Origin: an uncultured Gammaproteobacteria bacterium
GTDB lineage: Bacteria > Patescibacteriota > Microgenomatia > Levybacterales > UBA12049
Reading direction: 5' to 3'
Length of the DNA stretch: 64,000 nucleotides
Assembly (NCBI GenBank): GCA_964603935.1
Contig: CAZRWL010000001.1
Location: forward strand, 2,306 to 66,305
Shown piece by piece: positions 2,786 through 34,226 of the stretch (the first letter of the stretch is position 1; each line of letters starts with the position of its first letter). The position numbers were made by a program, and so were the translations under genes. The notes below the pieces were generated by a model, which did no database searches, was not told the DNA's origin, and saw nothing but the letters and a program-made list of their open reading frames with translations.

Positions 2786-3958
2786 ATGAAACATCCCAAA
2801 AAAACTGACAAGCAAAAACTCCTTATTATTTTATTTTTATGCTTAATTGTTCTTAGCGCTATTTCCTTCTTCTATTTTCTTGAGTCAAGAAAATCTCAAA
2901 ATTTCATTTTAAGCTTGAATAAGACTATAGACTCTACAAAAAAAGAATTGAGTAAGTTAAAAAACGAAGATCAATACAAGATTAACGAACAACTAAAAAC
3001 AGACATTAAATCAACCCATGATTCCTATAGCGAAACTGTTAAAGCCTATGAGAAAATCTTGGATTTAAAAGCGCAAAAGCAAGATGTTGGCGATTTGGAA
3101 AAAACTTATGCGGGAATTTTACAATATTTAACTGATCTTAATTATTCATCCGGATCCGCTCTGCTGACGGAATTAAATAACGATATAAACAAGAAATATA
3201 ACGCAATTGCTGCGACACAGAGTTCATTACCTTCAAATCAAACAGCAACTGCAAGCAATACTCCGCCATCAAGCGGATACAGTTTTCAGACAGTCAAAAC
3301 CGACAATGGAACTTTTAACGTGGCTATTATAGCAGCTGATCTTAATTCAACTAAAGTCATTATTGATACCGCATCGGATTCGGATTGCAATAATAATTGT
3401 CCGGTTATGGCTTTGGGTGATTATGCTGCCAGATCCGGAGCTTATGCGGGAATCAACGGCCCGTTTTTCTGTCCGGCAGAATATCCCAGCTGCGCAGGCA
3501 AAACTAATTCTTTTGATACTCTTTTGATGAATAAAAATAAACATTATTTTAATTCCGATAATAATAAATACAGCACCGTGCCGCTTATTTATTTTAGCGG
3601 CAATACCATGGGAGTACGGGGACAATCTTTGGATTGGGGACGGGATACGGGCGTAGATGCTGTTGTGGCTAACTTTCCTCTTTATCTTTCAGGCGGCAAT
3701 AATAATTTTGGAGGAAGTTCGGATCCTAAGATTAATAGCGCCGGCGCCCGAACTTTTGTCGCCAACAAAGGCAACTCTGTTTATATCGGTATTGTCTATA
3801 ATGCTTCAGCAGCCCAAGCAGCAGGCGTTCTTAAGACGCTTGGGATGGATAACGCTCTGGGATTGGATCAGGGAGGGTCAACTGCGCTTTGGTTCAACGG
3901 CTACAAAGCAGGTCCGGGAAGAAACATCCCCAGCGCTCTTCTTTTCGTCAGAAAATAA
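2786..3958 (+). CDS. Membrane-anchored phosphodiester glycosidase (DUF2233/NAGPA-like) family protein
   Basis: N-terminal TM helix, then a coiled-coil region, then a C-terminal domain with GINGPFF..DQGGSTALW motifs resembling DUF2233. Confidence 0.45.
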   Translation: MKHPKKTDKQKLLIILFLCLIVLSAISFFYFLESRKSQNFILSLNKTIDSTKKELSKLKNEDQYKINEQLKTDIKSTHDSYSETVKAYEKILDLKAQKQDVGDLEKTYAGILQYLTDLNYSSGSALLTELNNDINKKYNAIAATQSSLPSNQTATASNTPPSSGYSFQTVKTDNGTFNVAIIAADLNSTKVIIDTASDSDCNNNCPVMALGDYAARSGAYAGINGPFFCPAEYPSCAGKTNSFDTLLMNKNKHYFNSDNNKYSTVPLIYFSGNTMGVRGQSLDWGRDTGVDAVVANFPLYLSGGNNNFGGSSDPKINSAGARTFVANKGNSVYIGIVYNASAAQAAGVLKTLGMDNALGLDQGGSTALWFNGYKAGPGRNIPSALLFVRK

Positions 3959-4050
3959 ATATTAGAGAAGAGAAACAGGAACTCTTAATCCCATTCTAAT
4001 CAGCTTCTTGAATTGATTTCTGCAGATTTGCCTTACGCTCTCCAATTTAG

Positions 4051-4078
4051 AAAAAGAGATATCTCTTTTTATTTTTCT
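4051..4078 (+). terminator. Putative intrinsic terminator
   Basis: aaaaAGAGATATCTCTtttt palindrome followed by ATTTTTC, about 90 bp downstream of the 3958 stop. Confidence 0.4.
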
Positions 4079-4137
4079 TGCAAAAATTCTCATAGCAGCG
4101 ATCTTCATAGCTTCGATTTGCTCATTCTTCGATTCCA

Positions 4138-4180
4138 CTCAGAATCCTGAGCGAGTCGAAGGACTATGACCCTGAGCCTG
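4138..4180. repeat. Dispersed ~45-bp repeat family, copy A (intergenic)
   Basis: ctcagaatcctgagcgagtcgaaggactatgaccctgag resembles copies at 12593-12640 and 17855-17913. Shared core is CAGAATC..CTGA..CGAG.TC.AGGA..TGAC. Confidence 0.4.
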
Positions 4181-4357
4181 CCGAACGGATCATACTACCC
4201 AAATTGCTGCGTGCGCATTAGCATATAAAACCCTATTGCGCTCACCGCAATCAACAGCGATATTTCCATGCACTCATTTTAAGTTTCGGGTGTAAATATT
4301 ACTTTAAGCGCAAGTAAGAAACATGAAAGAGAAACTGATATATAATAATGGTACCCT

Positions 4358-5152
4358 ATGATTGACGTGCACTGTCATCTGAATTTTCATGCTTTTGCAA
4401 AAGATACCGATAAAGTTATCGGAAACGCATTTGCAGCCGGAGTTACCAAAATCATTAATGTGGGGACTAAAATTGACTCAAGCCAAACCGCTGTAGATTT
4501 GGCGCAAAAATACGAAAATTTATATGCAATTGTTGGAATCCATCCCCACCACGCTGATAAATTAGAAAGCAATTGGCTTGAAGAGTTGGAAGAATTAGCA
4601 AAAAAACCAAAAGTAGTGGCAATTGGCGAGATTGGAATGGATTATTATTCTTACAAATCAAATGCTATTGTTGACCCCAAATTGCAAAAAGAAGTATTCA
4701 TAAAACAGATTCAGTTGGCGCATAAACTAAATCTTCCTCTGCAAATTCATAATCGTCAGGCAGGAAAAGACATAGTGGATATACTGCTAAATCATAAGTC
4801 ATATCTCTTAAATCCCCCGGGCATGTTTCACTGCATGTCAGGAGACTTAGATTTGTTGAAAAAAGTCCTGGATTTTGGATTTTATGTTGGCTTTGATGGC
4901 AATATTACCTATAATGGTATCGCTAAAGGAGAAACAACAGCTCTATCCGAGCTGGTAGAATATGCTCCCTGCGATAGAATTGTGACTGAAACAGACAGTC
5001 CTTTTTTGACGCCCGAGCCCCACAGGGGTAGCAGAAATATACCCTCCTATGTTATAATTACAGCTAGGAAAATTGCGGAAATTAAGAAAATTCCCTTTGA
5101 AGAATTAGCCGATAATGCAATCCAAAACGCAATAAGACTCTTTAAGCTATGA
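4358..5152 (+). CDS. tatD: TatD-family metal-dependent hydrolase (DNase)
   Basis: MIDVHCHLNFHAF start, GEIGMDY motif and a D..G...FDG pattern typical of the TatD family. Confidence 0.85.
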   Translation: MIDVHCHLNFHAFAKDTDKVIGNAFAAGVTKIINVGTKIDSSQTAVDLAQKYENLYAIVGIHPHHADKLESNWLEELEELAKKPKVVAIGEIGMDYYSYKSNAIVDPKLQKEVFIKQIQLAHKLNLPLQIHNRQAGKDIVDILLNHKSYLLNPPGMFHCMSGDLDLLKKVLDFGFYVGFDGNITYNGIAKGETTALSELVEYAPCDRIVTETDSPFLTPEPHRGSRNIPSYVIITARKIAEIKKIPFEELADNAIQNAIRLFKL

Positions 5153-5195
5153 CACGTTCGACTATCGCTCAGTGTCATAGTGAGGAATTCGAACT

Positions 5196-6689
5196 ATGAC
5201 TGCTTTCTTTCAAAAAGTATTTACACGCTATCCCATAAAGACAAAAAGATTTCTGGAAATACTCCCTGGAACCGTATCTTGGACATTAATTCTTTTTCCC
5301 GTATGGGGTTCGCTTCTAATACCATATATTGTCGCATATTTTATTTTATTCTTTGATGTTTATTGGTTTTACAAATCATTCTCGCTTGCAATCATGGCTT
5401 TCATCGCATCCAGGAAGATAAAAAAATCGGAAAATGAAAATTGGTTTAATAAAATTAAAACTCTTAAGAATTACCAAAAAATTAGCCATGTGGTAATAAT
5501 CCCGAATTATACCGAAACTGTAGGTAAGTTAAGAACAACTCTTAATTCAATTGCGTCCCAAACATTCCCTGCAAAAAGAATATTTGTAGTTCTAGGAATG
5601 GAAGAAAGAGAAAGTCAGGGAGCAGAACGAGCCAAAATACTAATTCGGGAATTTAAGAGCATATTTGGAGGAATATATGCTACGTATCATCCTGATATTC
5701 CAGGTGAAGTAAAAGGAAAATCGTCAAATCAGTCGTTTGCATCAAAAGAAATTTACAAAAAACTTATTCTTAAAAAAATCATTGATATAAATTATGCAAC
5801 CATATCTTCTGTTGACGCTGATTCGATTTTCGATAAACAATATTTTTCTTATTTGACATACGAATTTTTAACCGATCCCAAGCCGTACAATAGATTTTGG
5901 CAATCGGCAAATGTTAATCACAATAATTTTTGGAATGTGCCCGCGCCAATAAGAATTATCTCTTTTTTCGGTTCTCTTTGGAGAACGGCAGTATTAGTGC
6001 AGGGAGACAGGCTTATTTCCAATTCAACTTATTCGCTATCTTTCGCTCTACTTAAGAAAATAGACTTTTGGGATACGGACGTTATTCCGGAAGACTATAG
6101 AATTTTCTTCAAGGCGTTTTACAAACTTAACGGCAATGTATGGGCAAAGCCAATATTCCTAAAAACATCTATGGATTCTCCGCGGTCATCCAATTTTCTC
6201 AAAAGTCTTAAGAGTAAATATCAGCAAGAGCAAAGATGGTCTTGGGGCGCTTCCGATGACCCCGTATTTATTAAATGGTGGTTCACTGTCCCCAACGTCC
6301 CTTTTGCAAGAAAAACAATTATGCTTTTCCATGTTCTGTTTGATCATTTCCTTTGGCCTGTAAATTGGTTCATTATCACTATTTCCGCAAACATCATAAC
6401 TCTTGTAAATCCTATTTTTTCAAGAACAACTATTGGGTATATGTTACCTCGTTTGGCAGGATTTATTTTAACTTCTTGCACAATAGCTTTTATCTCCATG
6501 ATTATTATTGATTTCAGAAACAGACCAAAAGATCCTTCCGTTTCTAAAATTCGTCAATTTATTTTTCCTCTGGAATTCATCCTTCTGCCAATCGTAGGAT
6601 TTTTTCTATCCACTCTTCCTGCTTTAATCTCTCATACTCGGCTTATGTTTGGAAAAAGAATGGAATATAAAGTCACGGAAAAATTATGA
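5196..6689 (+). CDS. Processive family-2 glycosyltransferase (CesA/chitin-synthase-like) integral membrane protein
   Basis: VVIIPNYTE start of the GT-A domain, DAD(S) DxD motif, QQEQRWSWG (QxxRW) motif, N- and C-terminal TM helices. Confidence 0.65.
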   Translation: MTAFFQKVFTRYPIKTKRFLEILPGTVSWTLILFPVWGSLLIPYIVAYFILFFDVYWFYKSFSLAIMAFIASRKIKKSENENWFNKIKTLKNYQKISHVVIIPNYTETVGKLRTTLNSIASQTFPAKRIFVVLGMEERESQGAERAKILIREFKSIFGGIYATYHPDIPGEVKGKSSNQSFASKEIYKKLILKKIIDINYATISSVDADSIFDKQYFSYLTYEFLTDPKPYNRFWQSANVNHNNFWNVPAPIRIISFFGSLWRTAVLVQGDRLISNSTYSLSFALLKKIDFWDTDVIPEDYRIFFKAFYKLNGNVWAKPIFLKTSMDSPRSSNFLKSLKSKYQQEQRWSWGASDDPVFIKWWFTVPNVPFARKTIMLFHVLFDHFLWPVNWFIITISANIITLVNPIFSRTTIGYMLPRLAGFILTSCTIAFISMIIIDFRNRPKDPSVSKIRQFIFPLEFILLPIVGFFLSTLPALISHTRLMFGKRMEYKVTEKL

Positions 6690-8161
6690 CCCTTACAAAA
6701 ATTCTAAAAGGACTTGAGAGAAGCAAAGAATTCTGGTTTGCTATTTTAACCTTATTCTTATTCTTTATACTAAGACTCCCTTCACTTTTTGAACCTCTTT
6801 GGTACGGAGATGAAGGAATATATCAAACAATAGGATCCTCGTTGAATCATGGAAAGTTGCTTTATTCGGAGGTATTCGATAACAAACCGCCTCTTTTGTA
6901 TTGGCTATATTCCTTTCTTCGCTCCGATCAGTTCAGCGTAAGGCTTGCATCTCTTATGTTTGGCGCGCTTTCTGTCGGAGCATTTTTCCTATTATCAAGA
7001 AGGCTTTTCAAAGGCAAAAATAGTGCTTCTTGTCTGGCAACTCTTGTTTTTGCTATTTTATTTGGCTTACCAACGTTAGAAGGAAATATCGCAAATGCGG
7101 AAAACTTTATGCTGCTACCAATCCTAGTTGCTGCGTTCATAATTTCAAATTTCAAATTTCACCTGTCCCCAGCGGGGGAAATTTCAAATTTCAAATTATT
7201 TATAGCCGGGACTTTCCTGGGTATTGCTTTTCTTTTCAAGATTGTCGCAATTTTTGATCTAGCTGCTTTTACCATTTTTTATTTTATCGCTAATTATAAT
7301 TTACTAAAAAAGGGCGTTAAAATACGATCTATTATTGTCGGATTTGCGCTTCCAATACTTCTTATTGCTTTGTTTTTTATCCTTAATGGAACATTTGCAG
7401 ACTTTATAAGAGCTGCATTTATCTCTAATATCTCTTATGTTAGTTATGGAAACAGAATTGGCGCATTCCCCATTATTCTTTTTATAAAATTGATTATTTT
7501 AGGAATTTTTATTCTATATGTCTTTAAGGAAAAAGAGAAAATTAGTCAAGTTTATCTTTTTATTCTGACTTGGTTCGCATTCTCATTGTTCAACGCTTAC
7601 TTTCCCCAACGCCCATACACTCATTATCTATTAATTTTAATTCCAAGCCTATCTCTTCTGATAGGGTTAATTTTATTTGATAAAAAGTATCGAAAAACTA
7701 TAGCTGTTATTTTTTTAATAGCTTTATTAATTGTAATAAAAGGATTTGGTATTCCAAAATTTCACAAAAGCATTAACTATTATCAAAATTTCCTATCTTA
7801 TGCTAAAGGCGAAAAGACAATGAGCTCGTATCAGGAATTTTTTGACCGAAATACGCCATTTGATTATGAAATAGCGCGTTTTATTAAGCCCAAACTTACC
7901 AAGAACGAGACTATTTTTGTTTGGGGAAACAATGCTCAATTATATCAATTGACCAACACAATTGCTCCAGCAAAATATACTGTTGCATATCACACATCAA
8001 ATTATAGCGATGGAGAAATAAACACAAAAACAATGATTGAAAAAGCAAGACCAAAATTTATCGTATTAATGCCTAATCAGAAAGCACTTCCTTTTTCGCT
8101 TATAGGTTATTTTCAAATAATAGAAATTAACAAAACAATAATATATGAGAGATTTTTTTAA
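6686..8161 (+). CDS. GT-C fold membrane glycosyltransferase (ArnT/PMT, family 39/83-like)
   Basis: About 11 TM helices. PLWYGDEGIY and DNKPPLLYWL motifs are typical of polyprenyl-phosphate-sugar dependent GT-C enzymes. Confidence 0.55.
   Translation: MTLTKILKGLERSKEFWFAILTLFLFFILRLPSLFEPLWYGDEGIYQTIGSSLNHGKLLYSEVFDNKPPLLYWLYSFLRSDQFSVRLASLMFGALSVGAFFLLSRRLFKGKNSASCLATLVFAILFGLPTLEGNIANAENFMLLPILVAAFIISNFKFHLSPAGEISNFKLFIAGTFLGIAFLFKIVAIFDLAAFTIFYFIANYNLLKKGVKIRSIIVGFALPILLIALFFILNGTFADFIRAAFISNISYVSYGNRIGAFPIILFIKLIILGIFILYVFKEKEKISQVYLFILTWFAFSLFNAYFPQRPYTHYLLILIPSLSLLIGLILFDKKYRKTIAVIFLIALLIVIKGFGIPKFHKSINYYQNFLSYAKGEKTMSSYQEFFDRNTPFDYEIARFIKPKLTKNETIFVWGNNAQLYQLTNTIAPAKYTVAYHTSNYSDGEINTKTMIEKARPKFIVLMPNQKALPFSLIGYFQIIEINKTIIYERFF
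7141..7197. repeat. Heptamer repeat (AATTTCA)x3 - hairpin (TCCCCagcGGGGA) - (AATTTCA)x2.7
   Basis: aatttcaaatttcaaatttca cctgTCCCCagcGGGGAa atttcaaatttcaaatt, in-frame inside the GT-C gene, giving peptide ISNFKFHLSPAGEISNFKLF. Confidence 0.9.
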
Positions 8162-8498
8162 AGAAATAACGCAGGATAAAACCGTAACTTTAGTATACTT
8201 TATCAACGGATTTTTTATTATTTCGTCCGTTGTTCTTGTTTTATTTTTCTACAGACGCTTCCCCCCATTGATTCCAATTTTCAATCAGCTGCCATGGGGC
8301 GAGCAAAGACTGGGAACAACAATAACTATATTTATACCCATATTTGTGTCGCTGTCAATTTTGGTAAGCAATATTTTTATTTCGGCTTTAATCTACAAAA
8401 ATATTCCCCTCGCTGCCCGCATGCTCGCAGCCATTAGCCTTCTTATAGGAATACTTACGCTGCTTCTTGTTGTAAAAACTATTGCATTGACTGCTTGA
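8145..8498 (+). CDS. Hypothetical small membrane protein
   Basis: 117-aa hydrophobic ORF. No family recognised. Confidence 0.3.
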   Translation: MRDFFKEITQDKTVTLVYFINGFFIISSVVLVLFFYRRFPPLIPIFNQLPWGEQRLGTTITIFIPIFVSLSILVSNIFISALIYKNIPLAARMLAAISLLIGILTLLLVVKTIALTA

Positions 8499-8499
8499 T

Positions 8500-9549
8500 A
8501 TGACAATATTTTTTTCTTTTCTAACAGCATTTATTGCGACTATCATCGCAACACCTTTATCTATATTCATTATGAAAAAGATGAATATTATTGATGATCC
8601 AAAAATCCATAAGCATCCCGCAATAATTCATAAAAAACCTATTCCCCGAGGCGGAGGAATTCCTCTTTTTGCAGGAACTGTCTTGGCTGCAATATTTTTT
8701 CTGCCTCTTCCCAAAACCATGATTATGCTTTTCATCGCAGGATTTATTGCGCTTCTAATCGGCATTATAGATGATAAATATGATATTTCCCCATACTTAC
8801 GATTTCTTTCAAATATTGCAGTTGCAGGAATTGTCGTTGGAAGCGGAATAACTATTCCTTTCGTAACAAATCCATTGGGAGGAATATTGTATCTTGATTC
8901 AATGAGTCTCCCTTTTGGGCTCAAACTTCCCGACATGATTGCGATGCTTTGGATTATCTGGGTTATGAATATGTTAAACTGGAGCAAAGGAGTTGACGGC
9001 CAAATGCCCGGAATTGTAGCAATATCGGCAATCGTAATAGGACTCCTTGGTATTCGTCTCGCAGATCCCAGCCACACAAATCAAGTAAGCATAATGCTTT
9101 CTTTTATTATAGCCGGAGCATCGCTTGGATTCTTAGTATTTAATTATCATCCGGCGAGGATATTTCCCGGATATGGCGCCACTGCTATTTATCTCTTGCT
9201 TGGCGCGGCTTCTATTTTGTCCGGAGCAAAACTAGCAACAGCTATATTGGTAATGGGAGTGCCAATGGTGGATGGCGCATTCACGATAATACGCCGTCTT
9301 TTAACAGGGCGTTCTCCTTTCTGGCATGACAAAAAACATCTCCACCATCTGCTCTTAAGTCTTGGCATGGGACAGAAGCGTATCGCATTGTTTTATTGGA
9401 CAATCTCTGCTATATTAGGAGCGCTTGCTTTGGTTTTGTCAAGTCAAGCTAAGGCTTTTGCGATTATAATGCTTTTAATTGTATTAGGCGGAACATTGCT
9501 TTTTCTGCATTATGCTCTTGAAAACACCTATGACAAAAATCGCCTATAA
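8500..9549 (+). CDS. MraY/WecA-family (GT4) polyprenyl-phosphate N-acetylhexosamine-1-phosphate transferase
   Basis: About 10 TM helices. Motifs IIDDP, NMLNWSKGVDG (NxxNxxDGxDG) and the general MraY/WecA topology. Confidence 0.65.
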   Translation: MTIFFSFLTAFIATIIATPLSIFIMKKMNIIDDPKIHKHPAIIHKKPIPRGGGIPLFAGTVLAAIFFLPLPKTMIMLFIAGFIALLIGIIDDKYDISPYLRFLSNIAVAGIVVGSGITIPFVTNPLGGILYLDSMSLPFGLKLPDMIAMLWIIWVMNMLNWSKGVDGQMPGIVAISAIVIGLLGIRLADPSHTNQVSIMLSFIIAGASLGFLVFNYHPARIFPGYGATAIYLLLGAASILSGAKLATAILVMGVPMVDGAFTIIRRLLTGRSPFWHDKKHLHHLLLSLGMGQKRIALFYWTISAILGALALVLSSQAKAFAIIMLLIVLGGTLLFLHYALENTYDKNRL

Positions 9550-10477
9550 TACATTGCGATTGCTTAGGCCAAGGCAGTGGATAAAAAATACTGCAATATT
9601 TGCTGCGATAACATTTTCAGGCGATCTTTTCGAATGGGCAATCTTACAAAAAGTGCTATTTGCTTTTTTCGTATTCTGCGCCTTATCTTCCGCAAGCTAC
9701 ATAATCAATGATATTTTCGATGCAAAAAACGATAGGCTTCATCCATTCAAACGGTTTAGACCTATTGCAAGTAAAAACCTGACAACAAATTACGCATTAG
9801 CGTTTGCATTTTTTTTAATATTTATTTCTTTTGTATTGGGTATTATGGTCAATCCGGCATTTTTCATTATTCAAATTATATATTTGCTGACTCAATTCCT
9901 TTATTCCGCCTCCCTTAAATTAATTGCCGTTGTAGATATTCTGGCAATAGCTTTAGGGTACATATTGAGAGTTTATGCCGGAGAATTAGCCGGAGGATTT
10001 CACATATCGGTATGGCTTTTATTGACAACTATTTCCCTTTCGCTTTTTCTGGCAATTGGAAAAAGAAGATCGGAATTAACACTTGTTTCTCAAATTAAAT
10101 CCGTAAACATATCCGATGTGAGAAAAACCCTATCTCATTATTCCGAACGCTTATTGGATGTTTACGCCTCTATTTTCGCAACATCTACATTTGTTTCCTA
10201 TTCGCTTTTTACTTTTCTGGAAAATCCGCGGGGATTCAAACTCGGGCTTAGCATTTTTTTGCCTGATTTTTTGCCGGCCTTTTTCCAAAGAAAGTGGCTC
10301 ATGATAACAATAGTCCCTGTTGTTTACGGACTCATGAAATATCTTCAGGATATCTACGAAAAACACGAAGGTGAAAGCCCGGAAAGAGTATTGTTGTCAG
10401 ACAAGTCCTTGCTTGCATCCGTAATTATCTGGATTGTCTTAGTTATTACCATAATCTACTTAATCGGTCCCAATTAG
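9512..10477 (+). CDS. UbiA-family prenyltransferase resembling decaprenyl-phosphate 5-phosphoribosyltransferase (DPPR synthase)
   Basis: RPRQWIKN N-terminus, NDIFDAKNDRLHPFKRFRPIAS (NDxxDxxxD plus KRFRPIA) as in Rv3806c-type enzymes, 8-9 TM helices. The start may be the ATG at 9530. Confidence 0.65.
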   Translation: MLLKTPMTKIAYNTLRLLRPRQWIKNTAIFAAITFSGDLFEWAILQKVLFAFFVFCALSSASYIINDIFDAKNDRLHPFKRFRPIASKNLTTNYALAFAFFLIFISFVLGIMVNPAFFIIQIIYLLTQFLYSASLKLIAVVDILAIALGYILRVYAGELAGGFHISVWLLLTTISLSLFLAIGKRRSELTLVSQIKSVNISDVRKTLSHYSERLLDVYASIFATSTFVSYSLFTFLENPRGFKLGLSIFLPDFLPAFFQRKWLMITIVPVVYGLMKYLQDIYEKHEGESPERVLLSDKSLLASVIIWIVLVITIIYLIGPN

Positions 10478-10484
10478 TTTTACT

Positions 10485-11351
10485 ATGAAATTAGAACACG
10501 CAGACAAGCTTAAAAAAGTAATCCAATATTTTAATACAAAAGAGTCTAAATGGGGATATGCGCTTCTCCTAAAGGGAACTAAGCATTTTGGATATTACCC
10601 GAAAGGAAAAGAAAAAATTTCTATGTCTCAGGCTCAAGGATTAATGGAAGACAAACTCGCAGAAAAGCTTGGTTTGCCAGCTAACTCTCTCGTGTTGGAT
10701 GCCGGAAGCGGTGAGGGAAATGTGGCAATTAATCTTGCAAAAAAATATGGACTGCGTATTTATGGAGTTGATTTGTTAGATTTTGCCGTAAACAAAGCAA
10801 GTTCTAAATCCAAAGAACTTAACTTACAAAATAAAGTAAAATTTAAACTTGGAGATTATACCAGATTAGACTTTCCCGATGAAACCTTCGACGGTGTCTA
10901 TACAATGGAAACTTTGGTACACGTCCCCGACTACAAGAAAGCTCTTAAGGAATTCTATCGAGTTCTAAAACCAAATGGAAAACTTGTTCTTTTCGAATAC
11001 TCGATGTGTTCCAAGAAAAATCTTACGCCAAAAGAACTAAAAATTGTAGATATTTTAGACATGGTTAATGAAGAATCAGGAATGCATAGCTTGCCTCATT
11101 TTCTTCACAATAAATTTCCTGAAGTACTGAAAAATGCCGGTTTTAATCATGTTACCGTAAGCAATATTACCTCCAATATTATGCCCATGCTAAAAACATT
11201 TTATTTGATTGCATATGCGCCTTACATGCTTATTAAATTCTTAGGGTTGCAACGAAAATTTATCAATGCAACATCTGCAGTTGAAGGCTACAGGAATATA
11301 AAAAAAGGTGATTTTTGGCGTTATAATATAATTTCAGCAGTAAAAAAATAG
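10485..11351 (+). CDS. Class I SAM-dependent methyltransferase
   Basis: VLDAGSGEGNVAINLAKKYGLRIYGVDL SAM-binding motif I. Confidence 0.65.
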   Translation: MKLEHADKLKKVIQYFNTKESKWGYALLLKGTKHFGYYPKGKEKISMSQAQGLMEDKLAEKLGLPANSLVLDAGSGEGNVAINLAKKYGLRIYGVDLLDFAVNKASSKSKELNLQNKVKFKLGDYTRLDFPDETFDGVYTMETLVHVPDYKKALKEFYRVLKPNGKLVLFEYSMCSKKNLTPKELKIVDILDMVNEESGMHSLPHFLHNKFPEVLKNAGFNHVTVSNITSNIMPMLKTFYLIAYAPYMLIKFLGLQRKFINATSAVEGYRNIKKGDFWRYNIISAVKK

Positions 11352-11358
11352 TCGGCCG

Positions 11359-12195
11359 TTACTCTTTAACAGCGTAGGAGGCGCTTACCCATCCCTTTTT
11401 TCCATCATTAAGTTTTATTTCAAGCCAGTCTTCTTCCTCGGAAACTAATTCATAGCTTTCTCCGGGCTTTACCTGGGCTATTTCAGAAGATGTAACAGAA
11501 TTGCCCTCTCTAACTCTTAAAAATCCTGTTGGAGTATTTAGGATTAAAACTCGGGAAACCACAACGGTTGGAGAAAGCAAGGCTTCCGATGATGCCAAAG
11601 GAATGCCGGGTAAATCAGGACTTATACCTAAAAAAATAAAAGAATTAAGCCTAAATCCCAGAGCTGTTTTAATTTTTATAGACTTTTCCTTATAGCCATC
11701 GCGAGTAATCCTAATATCATGATCAGACTCGCTAACTTGTTTCAGAAGTAAAGGCGTTACCCCAACGGGACTACTGTCCAAAAAGACATTTGCCTTGTCA
11801 GGCAGAGAAATTACCAGCAGCTCCACATCTTTTTTATTGCCCAAAGGAGACAGACTGATGATGCTCCCATCGCTTCCTCCGCTATTCGCAAATGTTCTAT
11901 CGATAACTGTCAGTGTCCCTTTATTGATGGTAACTTTGTCTTCAAAAGGTCTGTAGTTCCCATCCATTGGCGCTAATTTAACATCATAATCGCCGATAGA
12001 TAACATGTGATCTAAATCACAAATACAAAGAGGTGTAGTTCCTACTAATTTATTTTCCAAATAAACTTTGCTTTTGGGAACAGAAGTAACCTGAAGCGCT
12101 CCTTTGCCTGTTTTTTTATCCAAGAAAAACAAAATGCCGGAAAAAATAACTATCGCAATCAAAAGCGGCGCTAAAAATAACAAAGCTCTTTTCAT
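11359..12195 (-). CDS. Membrane-anchored PEGA-domain / bacterial SH3 (SH3b) domain protein
   Basis: N-terminal TM helix, two PEGA-like segments (..KVYLENKLVGTTPL.., ..NVFLDSSPVGVTPL..), and a C-terminal SH3_3-like region (VKPGESYELVSEEEDWLEIKLNDGKKGWV). Confidence 0.5.
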   Translation of the reverse strand: MKRALLFLAPLLIAIVIFSGILFFLDKKTGKGALQVTSVPKSKVYLENKLVGTTPLCICDLDHMLSIGDYDVKLAPMDGNYRPFEDKVTINKGTLTVIDRTFANSGGSDGSIISLSPLGNKKDVELLVISLPDKANVFLDSSPVGVTPLLLKQVSESDHDIRITRDGYKEKSIKIKTALGFRLNSFIFLGISPDLPGIPLASSEALLSPTVVVSRVLILNTPTGFLRVREGNSVTSSEIAQVKPGESYELVSEEEDWLEIKLNDGKKGWVSASYAVKE

Positions 12196-12232
12196 AAAAG
12201 TAGAGATAATTATATCATGCTATAATTTATTC

Positions 12233-12568
12233 ATGTTAATAAATTACGGTGATTTTAAGAAAGTGGATATTAGAGTCGGAAAAATTATAAAAGCGGAAGA
12301 TTTTCCGCAAGCTCGAAAACCGGCTTATAAACTAACTATTGATTTTGGAGCGGAAATTGGAATTAAAAAATCCAGTGTTCAAATTGTTGATCTTTATAAA
12401 AAAGAAGAACTGCAAGGCTTATTGATTATGGGAGTTATAAATTTCCCTTCAAAACAAATCGGTCCTTTCATGTCTGAAGTTCTAACAGTCGGAGTTGCAA
12501 ATGAAGAAGGTCAAGTAGTCCTAGTCCGCCCGGATAAAAATGCCAAACTCGGTTCTAAACTTTTCTAG
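12233..12568 (+). CDS. CsaA/Trbp111-type tRNA-binding domain protein
   Basis: FKKVDIRVGKIIKAEDFPQARKPAYKLTIDFG matches the MetRS C-terminal-like tRNA-binding fold. The ORF track's N-terminal extension from 12104 is rejected. An ATG at 12233 is preceded by TATAAT at 12222-12227. Confidence 0.7.
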   Translation: MLINYGDFKKVDIRVGKIIKAEDFPQARKPAYKLTIDFGAEIGIKKSSVQIVDLYKKEELQGLLIMGVINFPSKQIGPFMSEVLTVGVANEEGQVVLVRPDKNAKLGSKLF

Positions 12569-12574
12569 TCTAAT

Positions 12575-12592
12575 AAAAATCCCCTTTCGGGG
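12575..12592 (-). terminator. Putative intrinsic terminator for minus-strand RhuM gene
   Basis: CCCC-tttc-GGGG hairpin at 12581-12592, followed on the minus strand by TTTTTATT. Confidence 0.4.
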
Positions 12593-12640
12593 AATTCTGA
12601 GAACCGAGATCCTGAAATAAATTCAGGATGACATTTTAAT
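12593..12640. repeat. Dispersed ~45-bp repeat family, copy B (intergenic, contains ATCCTGAA-ataa-ATTCAGGAT hairpin)
   Basis: gaattctgagaaccgagatcctgaaataaattcaggatgacatt. The lepA copy looks like this one with the hairpin loop deleted (gaaccgag + ttcaggatgaca). Confidence 0.5.
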
Positions 12641-12664
12641 AAACCAGTAGTCCATTTTTCTCAA

Positions 12665-13219
12665 TCATTTTTTAATTCTTTTCAAAAGTTTTTTAACTTC
12701 TTTATCAAAGTCGGAAATATAATTTTTGTCCTGTACTTTTTTATATTTTTCGTATTCGCCAAGAGCAAGAGTTTCTGCAACTTCGTGGCTTATTTTTCCG
12801 GCATTGGTTAAAATCTCATATTCACTAAACTTCAAAAAAGCATTTAGCTTTTCTGTCCAATCTTTCATCGTCATTGCCTTTCCCCTTGCCGCCTGCATTT
12901 CCGCATAATCCAAATACATATTGCCGATACGATTAAGATGGGCCAATTCTTTTTTGTCCAGATAATTTTTCCCATCTTCGGCAGTATGTGCAAATTTTGC
13001 ACTAACTGAATCTTTATCTAACTCATTCTCAATAAAAATGTTCTTTAGGTGTTTGGTGACAACGCTTCTCTCGACATCAAAAAGTTCCGCTATCCTTTTT
13101 TGCGTCAACCAGATATTTTCCCTAGCATAGAGCACCTCAATATTTACTGCTCCGTCTGGAGATTGATAGAAAGCGATTTGATTATCCGGTATTTTTCTAA
13201 CTGAATATTTCCGATTCAT
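12665..13219 (-). CDS. RhuM-family virulence/mobile-element-associated protein
   Basis: 184 aa. NIEVLYARENIWLTQKRIAELFDVERSVVTKHLKNIF matches the RhuM (PF13310) signature. Confidence 0.6.
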   Translation of the reverse strand: MNRKYSVRKIPDNQIAFYQSPDGAVNIEVLYARENIWLTQKRIAELFDVERSVVTKHLKNIFIENELDKDSVSAKFAHTAEDGKNYLDKKELAHLNRIGNMYLDYAEMQAARGKAMTMKDWTEKLNAFLKFSEYEILTNAGKISHEVAETLALGEYEKYKKVQDKNYISDFDKEVKKLLKRIKK

Positions 13220-20689: not shown

Positions 20690-21292
20690 ATGCAAGATAT
20701 AGACAAGGATATAATAAAGCTTAAATATTTCCGGACGCTGCCATATCTAAATCAGGAAAGAACACAAAAATTTTTTGGCATAACATTGACCATTCTTGCT
20801 TTAATGTTCTTTGGATTCTTTGCTGTTAATCCAACAATTTCAGCTATTTTAAAATTAAAAAAAGAAGTTGCGGACAGCGAATTTGTTTATAGTCAATTAG
20901 GCGATAAGCTAAAAAATTTAAGCCAATTAAGAAATCGATATGATAACCTTCAGAGCGACCTTAACGTCATAACGGACTCTATTCCAATAGAACCAAATGC
21001 ACATCTGCTCTTTGCGCAGATACAAACCATCGCCTTACAATCAAATATTAAAATAAAAACTCTTAACAATTACGAAGTAGAGGTAATCAAAAACAATAAA
21101 ATATCCGGGAAAAAGTATTATTCTTACTCTTTTAATATTTCGGGAGAGGGATCTTTTGAGAATATATCCAAATTTATTTCAGCTATTACGGGGATGCAAA
21201 GAATTATAAGCATTGACTCTTTTACGATAGTTGACAAAAACAGCCAGTCGTTAGGATTTACTATTCAAGGAACAACTTTTTTTAAAGAATAG
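20690..21292 (+). CDS. PilO-like type IV pilus assembly membrane protein
   Basis: Short cytoplasmic N-terminus, one TM helix, then a coiled coil and a C-terminal alpha/beta region. Synteny with the pilN-like gene. Confidence 0.35.
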   Translation: MQDIDKDIIKLKYFRTLPYLNQERTQKFFGITLTILALMFFGFFAVNPTISAILKLKKEVADSEFVYSQLGDKLKNLSQLRNRYDNLQSDLNVITDSIPIEPNAHLLFAQIQTIALQSNIKIKTLNNYEVEVIKNNKISGKKYYSYSFNISGEGSFENISKFISAITGMQRIISIDSFTIVDKNSQSLGFTIQGTTFFKE

Positions 21293-25125: not shown

Positions 25126-27477
25126 ATGAATTTTTCCGACTTTTTATCCGTTGTGCAATGGTGGACAGTAATTTTTATTATTGGAGCTATTTTTATTCCA
25201 ATAACGAATTTAATTCTTTCAAATTTTTTTGACAAAGGCTATATTTTTTCAAAAATTATAGGGACAGCTGCAATAAGTTACGCTGTTTTTGTTCTCGGAT
25301 TTTTAAAAATCCTCCCCTTCACTCAAGCAACAATCTTTATTGTAATTGCCTTATTTGCAGGTATAAATATACTAATTTTCAAAAAAAAAATAAAGTTAGC
25401 AATTAAACAATTTGACAATGAAGCAATTAAAATAATTATCTTCGAAGAGGCTCTTTTTTTGGGAGTTCTATTTTTCTGGTCTTTTATTCACGCTCATCAG
25501 CCAGACATTCATGGTTTGGAAAAATACATGGATTACGGATTTATTAATTCGATATTGAGAGCCAAATATTTCCCGCCTCTAGATATGTGGTTTACTCCAT
25601 TCTCAATTAATTATTATTATTTCGGCCATTTAGTTACAGCCGTGCTAACAAAATTGTCCCTCCTTCCCTCACCAATTACTTTTAACCTAATGCTCTCGAC
25701 AATTTCTGCGCTATCTTTTGTTTCCGCTTTCTCAATCGGAGCTAATCTTTTCAAGATTTTAATGAACAAGGGACGGGTGGCAAAAGAGGAAGGGCTCCCG
25801 ACCCCACTTCGCTTGAAAGCTTCGAGGGGCAAAACAACGCTAGAGTCAGCGGGCTTGCCAGCCGTAGCTTTAGCGAAGGTTGGAGGGAAACTTTTGACAG
25901 GACCCGTCCTCGCAGGACTTTTGACGGCATTTATTTTAAACTTTGCGGGAAATTTACATACCCTGCATCTATTCTTTAAGCCTTATCTTAATGAAAATCC
26001 TGTGCCTTTTTGGAATTTAATATTCTCCCCCCAAACATTCCCCAATAATTATTGGTATCCAAATGCAACGCGTTTTATTGAAAATACGATCCACGAATTT
26101 CCCATTTATTCCTCTGTTGTTTCCGATCTTCACGGCCACTTCCTGGATCTCCCTTTTGTTTTACTAACAATAGCCATTCTCTTATCGCTAGTACTAAAAT
26201 CGCAAATCACAAATCACAAATCACAAATAAACCTTAATGTTCAAAATTCAAAACGTTTTGGATTTTTTAATTTTAGAAATTTGAATTTATTTGGAACTTG
26301 GAATTTTGAATTTAGAATTTTATTGCTGGCATTTTTGCTGGCAATAATGTATATGACGAATGCTTGGGACGGAATAATCTATTTCATACTAGCTACTCTT
26401 ATTATTGGCTATACTATTCTAAAATCACTAATTAATCCTTCAGAAATTAAAAATGCAAAATTCAAAAATTTTATTACTTTATTTATTCCCAAGATTTTAT
26501 TATTAGGATTCTTCTTTTTTCTATTCTCTCTACCCTTTAATTTAAATTTCAAGCCTTTTGCTTCCGCAATTGGCATACTTTGCGCGCCGGATTTCTTAGT
26601 GCGTTTGGAAAAATTCGGACCTTTCATTTTTGAAGCGAATCATTGCCAGCACTCTCCCGTATGGCAGTTATTTATTCTTTATGGCTTCTTTTACTTTTGG
26701 GTAGTTTCGTTCGTTATATTTCTTTTTAAAAATTTAAAAACAAAAATTGAAAATTTATCAGTATCCGATATATTCGTTGGAATTCTGATAATATTATCTA
26801 CCCTGCTTATTATTATCCCTGAATTTATCTATGTAAAAGATATTTATCCCGCGCACTACCGCGCCAATACGATGTTCAAGCTCGTTTATGAATCCTTCAT
26901 TATGCTTTCGTTAGCCTCGGGCTACATCGTAATAAGAATAATTAATAGTTTCAAATTTGTTTATTTGTTTATTGGCAGTATTGGATTATTCCTCGTAATG
27001 GTCTATCCTTATTTTGCGATTAAATCTTATTTTGGAGATTTAAAGGCTTACTCCGGACTTAATGGAACAAACTACCTTAAGCCGCTTTATCCTCAGGACT
27101 ACGATGCTATTTTATGGATAAATAAAAATATCAAAGGACAACCTGTAATTTTGGAAGCTCAAGGCGACTCGTACACGGATTATGGACGTATATCTACTAA
27201 TACCGGATTGCCGACAGTTTTGGGCTGGACTGTTCACGAATGGCTTTGGCGCGGCGCCTATGATATTCCAGCCCCAAGAATTGCGGAAATCGCAGAAATG
27301 TATGAGTCTAAAAACCCTAAGGAAACAAAAAAATTATTAAAAAAATATAACGTATCGCTTGTATTTTTGGGCGACCTTGAACGGCAAAAATATCTCAATC
27401 TTAACGAAGAGAAATTTAACTCATTTGGAAAAATAATTTACCAAAACAACCAGACAAAAATTTACAAAATTAATTAG
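25126..27477 (+). CDS. Large polytopic membrane protein of the YYY (TIGR03662/DUF2298) family
   Basis: SINYYYFGH motif and more than 15 TM helices. Contains a GC-rich insert (25765-25920) and variant heptamer repeats (26197-26320). Confidence 0.55.
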   Translation: MNFSDFLSVVQWWTVIFIIGAIFIPITNLILSNFFDKGYIFSKIIGTAAISYAVFVLGFLKILPFTQATIFIVIALFAGINILIFKKKIKLAIKQFDNEAIKIIIFEEALFLGVLFFWSFIHAHQPDIHGLEKYMDYGFINSILRAKYFPPLDMWFTPFSINYYYFGHLVTAVLTKLSLLPSPITFNLMLSTISALSFVSAFSIGANLFKILMNKGRVAKEEGLPTPLRLKASRGKTTLESAGLPAVALAKVGGKLLTGPVLAGLLTAFILNFAGNLHTLHLFFKPYLNENPVPFWNLIFSPQTFPNNYWYPNATRFIENTIHEFPIYSSVVSDLHGHFLDLPFVLLTIAILLSLVLKSQITNHKSQINLNVQNSKRFGFFNFRNLNLFGTWNFEFRILLLAFLLAIMYMTNAWDGIIYFILATLIIGYTILKSLINPSEIKNAKFKNFITLFIPKILLLGFFFFLFSLPFNLNFKPFASAIGILCAPDFLVRLEKFGPFIFEANHCQHSPVWQLFILYGFFYFWVVSFVIFLFKNLKTKIENLSVSDIFVGILIILSTLLIIIPEFIYVKDIYPAHYRANTMFKLVYESFIMLSLASGYIVIRIINSFKFVYLFIGSIGLFLVMVYPYFAIKSYFGDLKAYSGLNGTNYLKPLYPQDYDAILWINKNIKGQPVILEAQGDSYTDYGRISTNTGLPTVLGWTVHEWLWRGAYDIPAPRIAEIAEMYESKNPKETKKLLKKYNVSLVFLGDLERQKYLNLNEEKFNSFGKIIYQNNQTKIYKIN
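26197..26320. repeat. Variant heptamer repeats (AAATCAC)x4 followed by AATTTTGAATTT-type degenerate units
   Basis: aaatcgcaaatcacaaatcacaaatcacaaataaa ... ttgaatttatttggaacttggaattttgaatttagaatttt, in-frame, giving peptide KSQITNHKSQIN... Confidence 0.8.
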
Positions 27478-28540
27478 AGGGAATTTCTGGAACATGACAA
27501 TTGCCGACTGTTATTTCACAAGCGACAAACTTCTGGATCTCTGAAAAATTATCGTTCCCAACTCTTGGAATTAAAACCCACTGATTTTCATAAACTGAAG
27601 ATATTGGAGGATTTACCAAAAGACCGGGTCTCTCTTCCTGATTGTCTCCGTAATCCAATACAGCGCTTTCTATTTTCGCTTCTCTCATTTTATTTGCAAG
27701 CTTTATGAAATCATCTATTTCCCCCTCTTTTATATTTGTGTCTATACTGCCTTTCAAAGCTCCATAGACACTAACTATTTTTGCCGGATTAAGTAAAAAA
27801 TTTATGGAAAAAATTTTATCTTTCACTGCCTTTATTACCTGTTCCTGTCTTTTGGATCGTGCGAAATCCGTTCCATTTGATCCTTCCGCATGTCTGGATC
27901 TCACAAATTCAAGAGCTGCTTCTCCGTCTATATGGGTAACTCCCTTATCAAAATGCAGATGTTTGTACCTGCAGATAAATTTTTCCTGAATCTCTATTTC
28001 GGCAGAAATGGTAGCAACAAACGTCCCAATATCTTCATCGGAATATCCACAGGAATCATTTTCTCTTCCTGCTATGGGATACTTATAGTCATCAAAAGTG
28101 CTTTGAACATCAATGTCTATACCCCCAAGAATATCTAGAGTTTTGACAAAGCCGTCAAAATCAATTTTCACCGTATAGTCAATTGCATGCCCTATTACCT
28201 TCTTGACAACTGCGTTAGATAGCAAAATTCCCCCGCCCTTTTGTTTTGCTTCGGCTGTGGAATACGCAGTGTTAATTCTGGCATTTAAGTCGGTTATCCA
28301 TAAATCTCTTGGAACAGAAACCAGAGTGACTTTGTTATTTTCAGGATCAAGGCTTGCAAAAATCATAGTGTCTGTTAAATCAGGTCCTTGATGAATACCT
28401 CCTCCAACCCCTAACAAAAGAATGTTAATTCTGTCTTGAGTTTTCTTAAGGTCTATATTTTTATTGAAAGCCGTTTCTCCGACTTTCCCAAGAAATATCA
28501 AAAATAAAATTGAAAAAATTATCAATATTTTTTTATGCAT
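27470..28540 (-). CDS. LytR-CpsA-Psr (LCP) family cell-wall glycopolymer phosphotransferase
   Basis: N-terminal TM helix, NILLLGVGGG..DLTDTMIFASLDP..VSVPRDLW LCP core. Confidence 0.75.
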   Translation of the reverse strand: MHKKILIIFSILFLIFLGKVGETAFNKNIDLKKTQDRINILLLGVGGGIHQGPDLTDTMIFASLDPENNKVTLVSVPRDLWITDLNARINTAYSTAEAKQKGGGILLSNAVVKKVIGHAIDYTVKIDFDGFVKTLDILGGIDIDVQSTFDDYKYPIAGRENDSCGYSDEDIGTFVATISAEIEIQEKFICRYKHLHFDKGVTHIDGEAALEFVRSRHAEGSNGTDFARSKRQEQVIKAVKDKIFSINFLLNPAKIVSVYGALKGSIDTNIKEGEIDDFIKLANKMREAKIESAVLDYGDNQEERPGLLVNPPISSVYENQWVLIPRVGNDNFSEIQKFVACEITVGNCHVPEIPSN

Positions 28541-33920: not shown

Positions 33921-34226
33921 TTAAATTTTAAACATCACCCTCCCAACAATGTCTTTTTTTCTCACCCAGCCAAAATGCCTGCTATCTGTGCTTTCTCTCC
34001 TGTTGTCTCCGGTAACAAAAAAGATGTCTCCGTCAGCTGACGGCTTTATTTTTGCGATTCGTTTTATTATAAACTTTTCTCTCTTCAAAACAACAACATC
34101 TCTAATCCTGGGTTTATTTAAGAGATATGAAAGTCTATTCACCAAAATCCTATCGCCCACTCTAAATGCAGGAGTCATGCTATTACCTTTAATTTGAAAT
34201 TTAAAAAGAGGGAGTAAGCTAAACAC
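33921..34226 (-). CDS. sodX: S26-family signal-peptidase-like protease, putative Ni-SOD maturation peptidase SodX
   Basis: GNSMTPAF (catalytic Ser box), KRIAK (Lys box) and GDNRRESTDSRHFGWV (SPase box E). Immediately downstream of, and co-oriented with, a Ni-SOD precursor gene. Confidence 0.65.
   Translation of the reverse strand: MFSLLPLFKFQIKGNSMTPAFRVGDRILVNRLSYLLNKPRIRDVVVLKREKFIIKRIAKIKPSADGDIFFVTGDNRRESTDSRHFGWVRKKDIVGRVMFKI

Follow-up and report, generated by a model that had tools for sequence, protein, structure and literature searches.

A conserved glycan operon around a UbiA-family phosphoribosyltransferase homologue in Levybacteria, and a proposed pathway for lipid-linked ribose

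The 64-kb stretch of DNA analysed here (contig CAZRWL010000001.1 of assembly GCA_964603935.1, assigned to the Levybacterales; hereafter the window) carries, at 5196-11351, an operon-like array of glycan genes that includes a gene for a UbiA-family membrane protein. We propose that this protein is a polyprenyl-phosphate phosphoribosyltransferase (PPPRS) and that the lipid-linked ribose it supplies is used, without epimerisation, by GT-C glycosyltransferases on an extracytoplasmic acceptor, an explanation to which, as a whole, we give a probability of roughly 0.6. All presence and absence calls on the host are limited to the 64 kb of its genome that the window covers.

The UbiA-family protein

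The start codon of the UbiA-family gene is probably that of Met7, at 9530 (homologues are 314 aa long). The product matches the Pfam UbiA family with 67.3 bits (cut-off 34.2), which places it in the polytopic membrane fold of this superfamily. Against the NCBIfam models of decaprenyl-phosphate phosphoribosyltransferases (DPPR synthases) it scored 232.4, 205.9 and 160.6 bits, whereas the models for GGGP synthase, ChlG, haem O synthase, UbiA and EboC each gave at most 42 bits. The best match among all PDB sequences was Rv3806c of Mycobacterium tuberculosis (8j8j; E = 2.7e-36), with an alignment running end to end (residues 6-311 against residues 9-295 of the 302 of Rv3806c; 33% identity), and the next fold was that of DGGGP synthase (E = 3.2e-7). 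The likeness to decaprenyl-phosphate phosphoribosyltransferase claimed in a first-pass annotation, made from the DNA sequence alone, is borne out by these scores and by the residues described below: both the profile scores and the PDB ranking group the protein with DPPR synthases rather than with quinone, chlorophyll or haem prenyltransferases.

In Rv3806c, N73 and D77 are the Mg2+ ligands, R22, K87, R90 and K143, together with Y138, form the pyrophosphate cluster, Q135 contacts the ribose, and K28, Y70, Y157 and K191, plus K208, contact the 5'-phosphate or the lipid phosphate (Gao et al., PMC10994848). Sixteen positions of Rv3806c were checked (R22, K28, Y70, N73, D74, D77, D81, K87, R90, Q135, Y138, K143, Y157, R160, K191 and K208), 13 of which have contact roles for Mg2+, phosphoribosyl pyrophosphate (PRPP) or decaprenyl phosphate in that study (the exceptions being D74, D81 and R160), and all 16 are identical in the window protein. 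Most of them are invariant in 81 relatives, and the seven Mg2+ and pyrophosphate positions are nearly so. Identity extends to all five contacts that distinguish phosphoribosyltransferases (K28, Y70, Q135, Y157 and K191); the first four, which are phosphoribose and 5'-phosphate contacts, are reported not to be conserved in true prenyltransferases (Gao et al., PMC10994848).

An ordinary prenyltransferase of the quinone, haem O, chlorophyll or archaeal-lipid type, with a superficial likeness to DPPR synthases, would agree with the superfamily membership of the protein and with some of the names given to its homologues. Those listed are 78-93% identical, several being labelled Levybacteria, and they are annotated variously as 'decaprenyl-phosphate phosphoribosyltransferase' (some, at both NCBI and JGI), 'UbiA family' or '4-hydroxybenzoate polyprenyltransferase'. 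The scores also fall just below the NCBIfam thresholds, by 1.6 bits for NF008977 (232.4 against a trusted cut-off of 234) and by 1.1 bits for NF008978 (205.9 against 207), a shortfall that counts against the PPPRS assignment; the equivalog cut-off is an annotation rule. However, the scores of the other subfamily models, the order of the PDB matches, the presence of K28, Y70, Q135 and Y157, and a genomic context of glycan rather than quinone synthesis make an ordinary prenyltransferase highly improbable. Taken together, these comparisons make a strong case that the window protein is a PPPRS.

Relative to Rv3806c, the window PPPRS has an 18-residue insertion, GFKLGLSIFLPDFLPAFF (residues ~231-254, alignment columns 241-258), which lies between two C-terminal helices and is highly conserved among the aligned Levybacteria PPPRS proteins. 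Directly 3' of its closest homologues from outside the Candidate Phyla Radiation (CPR), in Gemmatimonadota, Acidobacteriota, Thermoleophilia and an unclassified metagenome-assembled genome, lies a DUF362 gene, and in a Shapirobacteria locus (L044) such a gene is found two genes upstream of UbiA (Table 1). DUF362 belongs to the same Pfam clan as the LarA nickel-pincer racemases/epimerases (PMC11770544), and because of this common clan it could be an epimerase, so far unrecognised, that acts on the lipid-linked pentose.

The operon and its conservation in the CPR

The UbiA-family gene is the fifth of six consecutive plus-strand genes, preceded by those for a GT2 glycosyltransferase, a GT-C (GT-C1), a small protein (sm117) and a phosphotransferase (GT4), and followed by that for a methyltransferase (Table 1). 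Hydropathy marks the first five products as polytopic membrane proteins and the last, the methyltransferase, as soluble. The first junction is an ATGA at 6686; from there on the genes overlap by 17 nt, stand 1 nt apart, overlap by 20 nt and stand 7 nt apart. As all junctions are overlaps or gaps of at most 7 nt, the array is operon-like and not a chance arrangement. This layout of five membrane proteins and a methyltransferase is the one first described, with every ORF at the coordinates then given, and the families then assigned to the five (a GT2 with QxxRW motif, a GT-C, a small membrane protein, a WecA/MraY-type enzyme and a UbiA-family enzyme) are correct. When 3900-12700 was scanned for promoters and terminators nothing informative emerged, promoter-like sites being at chance level.

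GT2 matches Pfam Glyco_trans_2_3 with 30.2 bits (cut-off 27) and carries the motifs DAD207, PEDY298 and QEQRW344, which are invariant in 31 homologues; one or two N-terminal and three or four C-terminal transmembrane (TM) helices flank its GT-A domain. The top Foldseek matches of an AlphaFold2 (AF2) model were hyaluronan synthases (HAS) and BcsA (E = 2e-8 to 1e-7; TM-score ~0.45), and the list extended to chitin synthases with E values up to 1e-4. The motifs and the model thus support, with medium confidence, the earlier description of GT2 as processive, and point to a synthase of the HAS/BcsA type.

GT-C1 matches PMT_2 with 31.2 bits (cut-off 26.1) and has ~10 TM segments by hydropathy. A WYGDE motif (residues 39-43) after TM1 and the residues D65, K67 and P69 are invariant in 41 orthologues, as expected for the catalytic loop of a GT-C, and the protein is predicted to use a polyprenyl-phosphate-sugar donor at the outer face of the membrane. 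When the GT-C1 family profile was compared with the PDB no Emb or Aft chain was matched, and in Pfam the window GT-Cs match PMT_2 only. Searches of the PDB with GT-C1, GT2 or the DUF2298 protein described below, as single sequences or as profiles, gave no useful match.

No Pfam or NCBIfam family was matched by sm117, nor any PDB fold (best E = 0.9). Its AF2 model consists of three helices (pLDDT 82.7), and the loop between TM1 and TM2 is strongly conserved (LPPxIPIFNQLPWGEQRLG). It is probably an accessory subunit of the GT4 phosphotransferase, because its gene always stands immediately upstream of GT4 (58 loci) and because in one locus (L060) the two are joined in frame in a single protein, with sm117 as the N-terminal domain (residues 38-143; E = 4.8e-5). 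A role of sm117 as a flippase of the GtrA or SMR type was considered and rejected, as it has no family match, three helices rather than four and no PDB fold match; the L060 fusion likewise points to a phosphotransferase partner rather than to a flippase. GT4 itself (82.8 bits to Glycos_transf_4) has WecA as its top NCBIfam model (104 bits; cut-off 326), with MraY at 36 bits (cut-off 192), and carries the motifs DDKYD91, NMLNWSKGVDG157 and HLHH280 of the polyprenyl-phosphate N-acetylhexosamine-1-phosphate transferases (PNPT). By these sequence criteria it is an enzyme of the PNPT family and clearly not MraY. The end of GT4 overlaps the start of UbiA in nearly all relative loci.

The methyltransferase matches Methyltransf_11 with 82.7 bits, and its top PDB matches are the D-glucose O-methyltransferase 6uv6 (8.6e-26), MitM (8zc8 and related entries, 2.4e-23) and 3bus (1.8e-21), a methyltransferase of unstated specificity; it is possibly a sugar O-methyltransferase. 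It was rejected as a core member of the operon, as it is missing from this position in most relatives; in L001 a gene with a Lycopene_cyc domain takes its place, and homologues stand elsewhere beside the glycan system in L033, L052, L104, L141, L151-L153 and L159. Just upstream of the operon, between the MetRS and TatD genes, the window holds a gene (2786-3958, +) whose product, secreted or anchored, has a NAGPA domain ('uncovering enzyme', a phosphodiester glycosidase); the gene is found at the same place in L001, and its product may process phosphodiester-linked surface glycans.

Table 1. Genes of the operon and of the second cluster in the window, and DUF362 genes in relative loci (positions preceded by a locus label refer to that locus).
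Feature	Position	Strand	Evidence or remark
GT2, HAS/BcsA/chitin-synthase type, 497 aa	5196..6689	+	Pfam Glyco_trans_2_3
GT-C1, PMT_2 type, 491 aa	6686..8161	+	Pfam PMT_2
sm117, three-helix membrane protein, 117 aa	8145..8498	+	no family match
GT4, WecA/TagO/MraY superfamily phosphotransferase, 349 aa	8500..9549	+	Glycos_transf_4
UbiA, PPPRS / DPPR-synthase homologue	9530..10477 (in-frame ATG of the first-pass annotation: 9512)	+	NCBIfam DPPR synthase models
Class-I S-adenosylmethionine methyltransferase, soluble	10485..11351	+	Methyltransf_11
GT-C2, PMT_2 type, 549 aa	22899..24548	+	PMT_2, 46.9 bits
orf182, soluble HAD-like protein, 182 aa	24573..25121	+	HAD motifs in family alignment
DUF2298 / Chlor_Arch_YYY polytopic membrane protein, 783 aa	25126..27477	+	PF10060, 310 bits; TIGR03662, 465 bits
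LCP (LytR-CpsA-Psr) glycopolymer-peptidoglycan ligase	27470..28540	-	PF03816, 112.8 bits; TIGR00350, 103 bits
GT-C3, PMT_2 type, 455 aa	32028..33395	+	PMT_2, 35.6 bits; downstream of FemAB-family gene
DUF362 gene	L072:10810-11949
DUF362 gene	L074:2239-3336
DUF362 gene	L076:10860-12071
DUF362 gene	L077:1933-3069
DUF362 gene	L044:7107-8195

Relative loci were collected by a scan of one genome per species, which yielded 80 loci, followed by ORF (open reading frame) calling, phmmer and clustering. The order (MetRS)-TatD-GT2-[GT-C]-sm117-GT4-UbiA-PEGA/SH3, the last gene on the minus strand, was found in ~65 CPR loci, with UbiA identities down to 41%; the informative locus labels include Levy-, Davies-, Gottesman- and Cerribacteria, Paceibacterota and Saccharimonadales. 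Among 82 loci, many of them clipped at contig ends, GT4 was present in 65, sm117 in 58, GT2 in 55 and GT-C in 42. In the 17 loci holding all genes, each compared with the window, the median identities were 69.6% for GT2, 69.4% for GroEL, 68.9% for UbiA, 62.5% for GT4, 59.8% for MetRS, 47.6% for GT-C and 38.1% for sm117. In their rate of change UbiA, GT2 and GT4 therefore resemble housekeeping proteins, with identities at the level of GroEL or MetRS. These data indicate that the core operon (GT2, sm117, GT4 and UbiA) is a conserved, housekeeping-like trait of Levybacteria and related CPR bacteria and not a variable serotype cassette. In the loci of the Daviesbacteria type (L035, L037, L040-L043, L045, L047, L048, L050 and L052-L054) no GT-C gene stands between GT2 and sm117, and their GT2 (589-608 aa) is ~100 aa longer than that of the window and ~30% identical to it.

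The type of pathway is already published, and the operon in CPR bacteria is not yet described in the literature that we found: our search retrieved no description of it in CPR/Patescibacteria, and the paper of Kelly et al. (PMC11127046) makes no mention of CPR. What is new here is the conservation of the operon in the CPR, the fusion of sm117 to GT4, a HAD-like phosphatase candidate and an SDR (short-chain dehydrogenase/reductase) gene that is found in relatives but not in the window, the last two of which belong to the second cluster.

The second cluster, the proposed pathway and further features of the window

Two further GT-C genes and an LCP ligase gene had been reported from the window, and Pfam matches confirm all three. 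Together with orf182, which lies between GT-C2 and the DUF2298 gene, they form a second cluster (Table 1), downstream of a PilO gene (20690-21292). An exhaustive search gave 144 relatives of orf182. An alignment of 47 sequences was too diverse for a scan of loci, whereas one of 10 sequences worked and yielded a further 80 loci from metagenomes. The gene order in these is PilO-Big_13-[FAD amine-oxidase-like]-one to four GT-C paralogues-[extended SDR, or GT-B with or without a methyltransferase]-orf182-DUF2298-LCP(-)-TIM(-)-UvrD-FemAB-GT-C3. The paralogues, downstream of PilO and the Big_13 protein, occupy the position of GT-C2; the FemAB-GT-C3 pair and the LCP gene beside DUF2298 are kept in relatives, and orf182 always stands beside DUF2298. 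The DUF2298 protein has ~17 hydrophobic segments, and hhalign matched the last third of its sequence to the profile of the GT-C1 family (probability 70%, E = 4e-5), which suggests that it is probably a further GT-C-like transferase.

A scan of the large ORFs of the window (at least 110 aa, excluding ORFs nested in or overlapping longer ones) found no DprE1 (FAD_binding_4 plus ALO), no DprE2 or other SDR, no PAP2 protein and no annotated HAD protein, in agreement with the earlier remark that DprE1/E2 are not visible, and no phosphatase (PRP) domain is fused to the window UbiA. The best candidate for the missing 5'-phosphatase acting on polyprenyl-P-ribose-5-P is orf182, because of its HAD motifs and its gene neighbourhood. 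Both alignments show HAD motifs I-IV, with D6 and D8 invariant in 'GFDLDGV', LIS[SG]R, K121 and DDD135-137; the profile has weak PDB matches to the HAD phosphatases Pnkp1 (E = 0.005) and 5'(3')-deoxyribonucleotidase (E = 0.07), and one fused relative gives a weak HAD_2 match. In L044, the Shapirobacteria locus, the genes around UbiA are a 198-aa ORF homologous to orf182, which adjoins it, DUF362, DUF2298, directly 3' of UbiA, and two GT-Cs; L029 and L136 each have the UbiA operon and an SDR-orf182-DUF2298 array on one 13-kb stretch.

Whether the lipid-linked ribose is epimerised was considered in the light of the same loci. The ribose could be converted to arabinofuranose or xylofuranose before transfer, as in the mycobacterial decaprenyl-phosphate-arabinose (DPA) pathway or in Citrobacter O2, by enzymes encoded outside the 64 kb, the chemistry of the first step being unchanged. 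The partial coverage of the genome leaves room for such enzymes, and dprE1 and dprE2 are presumably not adjacent to ubiA in M. tuberculosis either. Many relatives also carry an SDR epimerase gene in the second cluster, some of them together with the FAD amine-oxidase-like gene: beside the orf182 cluster the SDR is found in 37 of the 80 metagenome loci, the FAD protein, upstream of the GT-C paralogues, in 18 and a GT-B in 13. This SDR is not a canonical GalE (best NCBIfam scores of 95-115 bits, far below the cut-offs). However, its place is fixed, immediately upstream of orf182, and at that place the window has a GT-C2-orf182 junction of 24 nt in which neither phmmer nor tblastn detected an SDR remnant. 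At least three other loci (L104, L117 and L118) show the same arrangement of GT-C2 and orf182 without an epimerase, and no ALO/DprE1-type or DprE2-type gene occurs among the ~160 related loci examined. We consider epimerisation of the donor in this organism unlikely, and because the SDR carried by many relatives is missing here, the donor most likely stays ribofuranose.

Searches of the 64 kb for the companion genes seen in relatives (SDR, DUF362, Lycopene_cyc-like, FAD amine-oxidase-like and GT-B) found none. The single FAD_binding_4 protein of the window (41334-42986) was rejected as a DprE1, as it has FAD-oxidase_C, matches GlcD/YdiJ models and lacks an ALO domain. The pairing of a flavoprotein with an SDR in relatives (in L086, an FAD amine-oxidase-like gene at 1137-2414, NF005560, 380 bits, and an extended SDR at 8950-9999) recalls DprE1/DprE2 in logic and not in family; neither member is present in the window.

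The following pathway is proposed. At the cytoplasmic face, UbiA would move ribose-5-phosphate from PRPP to polyprenyl phosphate, giving polyprenyl-P-ribofuranose-5-P, from which the 5'-phosphate would be removed, with orf182, judging from motifs and gene neighbourhood, as the best candidate for this step. By analogy with Citrobacter O1 as opposed to O2, no epimerisation would follow and the donor would most likely stay polyprenyl-P-ribofuranose, to be flipped to the outer face by a putative flippase. There, GT-C1, GT-C2 and GT-C3, and probably the DUF2298 protein, would add the pentofuranose to an extracytoplasmic acceptor. This acceptor would most likely be built by GT4 with sm117 and by GT2, as a polyprenyl-PP-primed and/or a synthase-exported glycan, and LCP could attach it to peptidoglycan, in a logic like that of mycobacterial arabinogalactan. 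The methyltransferase would be a strain-variable decoration enzyme. Direct use of lipid-linked ribose by GT-C enzymes, as suggested in the first-pass annotation, matches by analogy the mechanism of Citrobacter youngae O1 (PMC11127046).

The donor might instead serve protein O-glycosylation, of type IV pilins or surface proteins, rather than a peptidoglycan-linked polysaccharide, in which case GT2, GT4 and UbiA/GT-C would be separate envelope functions in one operon. The GT-Cs belong to the PMT_2 type, which resembles protein O-mannosyltransferases, and a GT-C that is a true PMT plus PMT_4TMC lies directly 3' of UbiA in a different CPR group. The second cluster, moreover, always follows the genes for the PilO-like and Big_13 surface proteins, and there is a precedent in the TfpW-mediated arabinosylation of pilin in Pseudomonas aeruginosa (cited in PMC11127046). 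However, PMT_2 also spans ArnT-like lipid and glycan transferases, so that membership of this Pfam family does not decide what the acceptor is; the tight overlap of GT4 with UbiA and the fusion of sm117 to GT4 suggest that the functions are coupled, and an LCP ligase is conserved beside DUF2298. Protein O-glycosylation is thus, in our view, rather unlikely, and we favour transfer of unepimerised ribose to a glycan.

Several further points weigh against the proposed pathway. No flippase of the MATE, GtrA or SMR type is found at the locus, MurJ (18132-19796) being the only MOP-family protein of the window, and DprE1/E2-like, SDR or PAP2 genes could lie outside the 64 kb. The candidate phosphatase matches no HAD model of Pfam or NCBIfam, has weak profile matches only in the PDB and is encoded 14 kb from UbiA. 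About ten of its relatives are fusions with a GT-B; in several proteins of 550-600 aa (P0381, P0383, P0391, P0403, P0410, P0429 and P0436) the orf182 domain precedes a Glycos_transf_1 domain, and in L151-L153 and L159 a separate GT-B gene stands, in divergent orientation, beside orf182, which suggests that orf182 could serve another phospho-sugar step (a synthase/phosphatase two-step). The AF2 model of GT2 is of medium confidence (pLDDT 65.6, pTM 0.71), its GT-A core being predicted confidently and its TM parts poorly. The synteny around the operon may partly reflect a general collinearity of Microgenomates genomes, the neighbours being MetRS, TatD, GroEL and LepA. Finally, we infer, rather than observe, the acceptor, the flippase and the identity of the sugar.

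Elsewhere, the G+C content is 0.33-0.38 over most of the window and rises to 0.43-0.48 in a region with two giant minus-strand ORFs. In the first (45482-52933, 2483 aa), bacterial surface Ig-like, RTX and SdrD_B repeats accompany a domain of the animal haem peroxidase type (199 bits); in the second (52954-59304, 2116 aa), HYR, fn3 and LTD domains accompany seven Bact_surface_Ig-like domains. The region, bordered by a response regulator gene (44485-45156) and by one for a GAF histidine kinase (59375-60586), may be a horizontally acquired island of surface proteins. Rfam (RF00028, 88.6 bits) places a group I intron at 63616-63806 on the minus strand. ARAGORN called no tRNA in the intact window, and after removal in silico of ~205 nt (~63603-63815) it called a minus-strand tRNA, which indicates that the intron interrupts the anticodon loop of a tRNA; the anticodon of the recovered tRNA depends on the exact splice boundaries. 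A preprint describes tRNA group I introns in Patescibacteria (10.1101/2025.07.03.662931). The window also holds a RhuM-family gene (12665-13219, -), between a gene for a tRNA-binding-domain protein and GroEL, and a nickel superoxide dismutase gene (34226-34663, -), unusual for a CPR organism with a small genome.

Meaning and comparison with known systems

Experimentally, next to nothing is known of the envelope glycans of CPR/Patescibacteria, bacteria that live attached to hosts and depend on their surface. PPPRS is a drug target in M. tuberculosis, and here it stands in an operon conserved like GroEL across many CPR lineages, a level of conservation suggesting that a glycoconjugate with pentofuranose is among the core components of the envelope. 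The recently defined pathway of pentofuranose glycosylation would thereby extend from Proteobacteria, where it decorates serotypes, to a deep-branching group in which it would have a housekeeping role. Tentatively, and with more doubt than confidence, we suggest that a glycopolymer containing ribofuranose, or another pentofuranose in the relatives with an epimerase, is a core and near-essential part of the envelope in Levybacteria and many Microgenomates/CPR bacteria, made with an arabinogalactan-like logic (a WecA-type initiator, a GT2 of the synthase type, GT-Cs supplied by a PPPRS, and ligation by LCP) and with two parts not recognised before, a three-TM subunit of GT4 and a new family of HAD-like lipid-phosphoribose phosphatases. 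If so, the loss or gain of the epimerase would tune the sugar of the glycopolymer between lineages. The PPPRS, the candidate HAD phosphatase and the PNPT partner protein are hypotheses that can be cloned, and the published Citrobacter assays apply to them.

The closest parallel is found in Citrobacter youngae. In serotype O1, undecaprenyl-P-ribofuranose is made by a PPPRS fused to a HAD phosphatase and flipped by a MATE protein, and the ribofuranose is transferred by a GT-C without an epimerase, as shown experimentally; in serotype O2, the donor is changed to xylofuranose by one cytoplasmic epimerase, an SDR (Kelly et al. 2024, PMC11127046). The genes involved are ORF15 (PPPRS-PRP), ORF14 (MATE flippase), ORF12 (GT136 GT-C) and the optional ORF13 (SDR epimerase) (PMC11127046). 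As in both serotypes, a UbiA-fold PPPRS in the window would feed polyprenyl-P-pentofuranose to GT-Cs, and no DprE1/E2 is seen in the window; among the close relatives of the window the SDR epimerase is present or missing, just as it distinguishes O2 from O1. A phosphatase candidate of the HAD type is a further likeness, although that of the window belongs to a separate, unannotated family encoded 14 kb away, with a stand-alone PPPRS, whereas the Citrobacter phosphatase and PPPRS are fused. In contrast to Citrobacter, the window locus has no MATE flippase, its GT-Cs are assigned to the PMT_2 or DUF2298 types, and its PPPRS shares an operon with a WecA-like phosphotransferase, a three-TM partner and a HAS-like GT2. 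The Citrobacter genes are a serotype-variable add-on, whereas the CPR operon is a core conserved at the level of GroEL, in a monoderm-like CPR host.

With mycobacterial arabinogalactan synthesis the window shares a homologue of Rv3806c, a WecA-type initiator, a GT2, GT-Cs for which a lipid-linked pentose would be the donor, and an LCP ligase (Lcp1 in mycobacteria). Mycobacteria have DprE1/DprE2, the PAP2 protein Rv3807c and the GtrA-like Rv3789, none of which has a counterpart in the window; furthermore, the window GT-Cs are not Emb or Aft proteins by Pfam, its GT2 is a membrane-embedded synthase, unlike GlfT2, and the predicted sugar is ribofuranose rather than arabinofuranose. Arabinosylation of pilin in P. 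aeruginosa Pa5196/PA7 relies on a PPPRS, DprE1/E2 homologues and the GT-C TfpW (summarised in PMC11127046). The window resembles this system in its stand-alone PPPRS with GT-Cs and in the proximity of its GT-C cluster to type IV pilus genes (PilO), and differs from it by having no DprE1/E2 homologues. Finally, the window GT2 has the DxD, ED and QxxRW motifs and the flanking TM helices of HAS, BcsA, chitin synthase and NodC; it is set apart from HAS and BcsA by an identity of 11-14%, with a TM-score of ~0.45 for the medium-confidence model, and by having neither a PilZ nor any other accessory domain.

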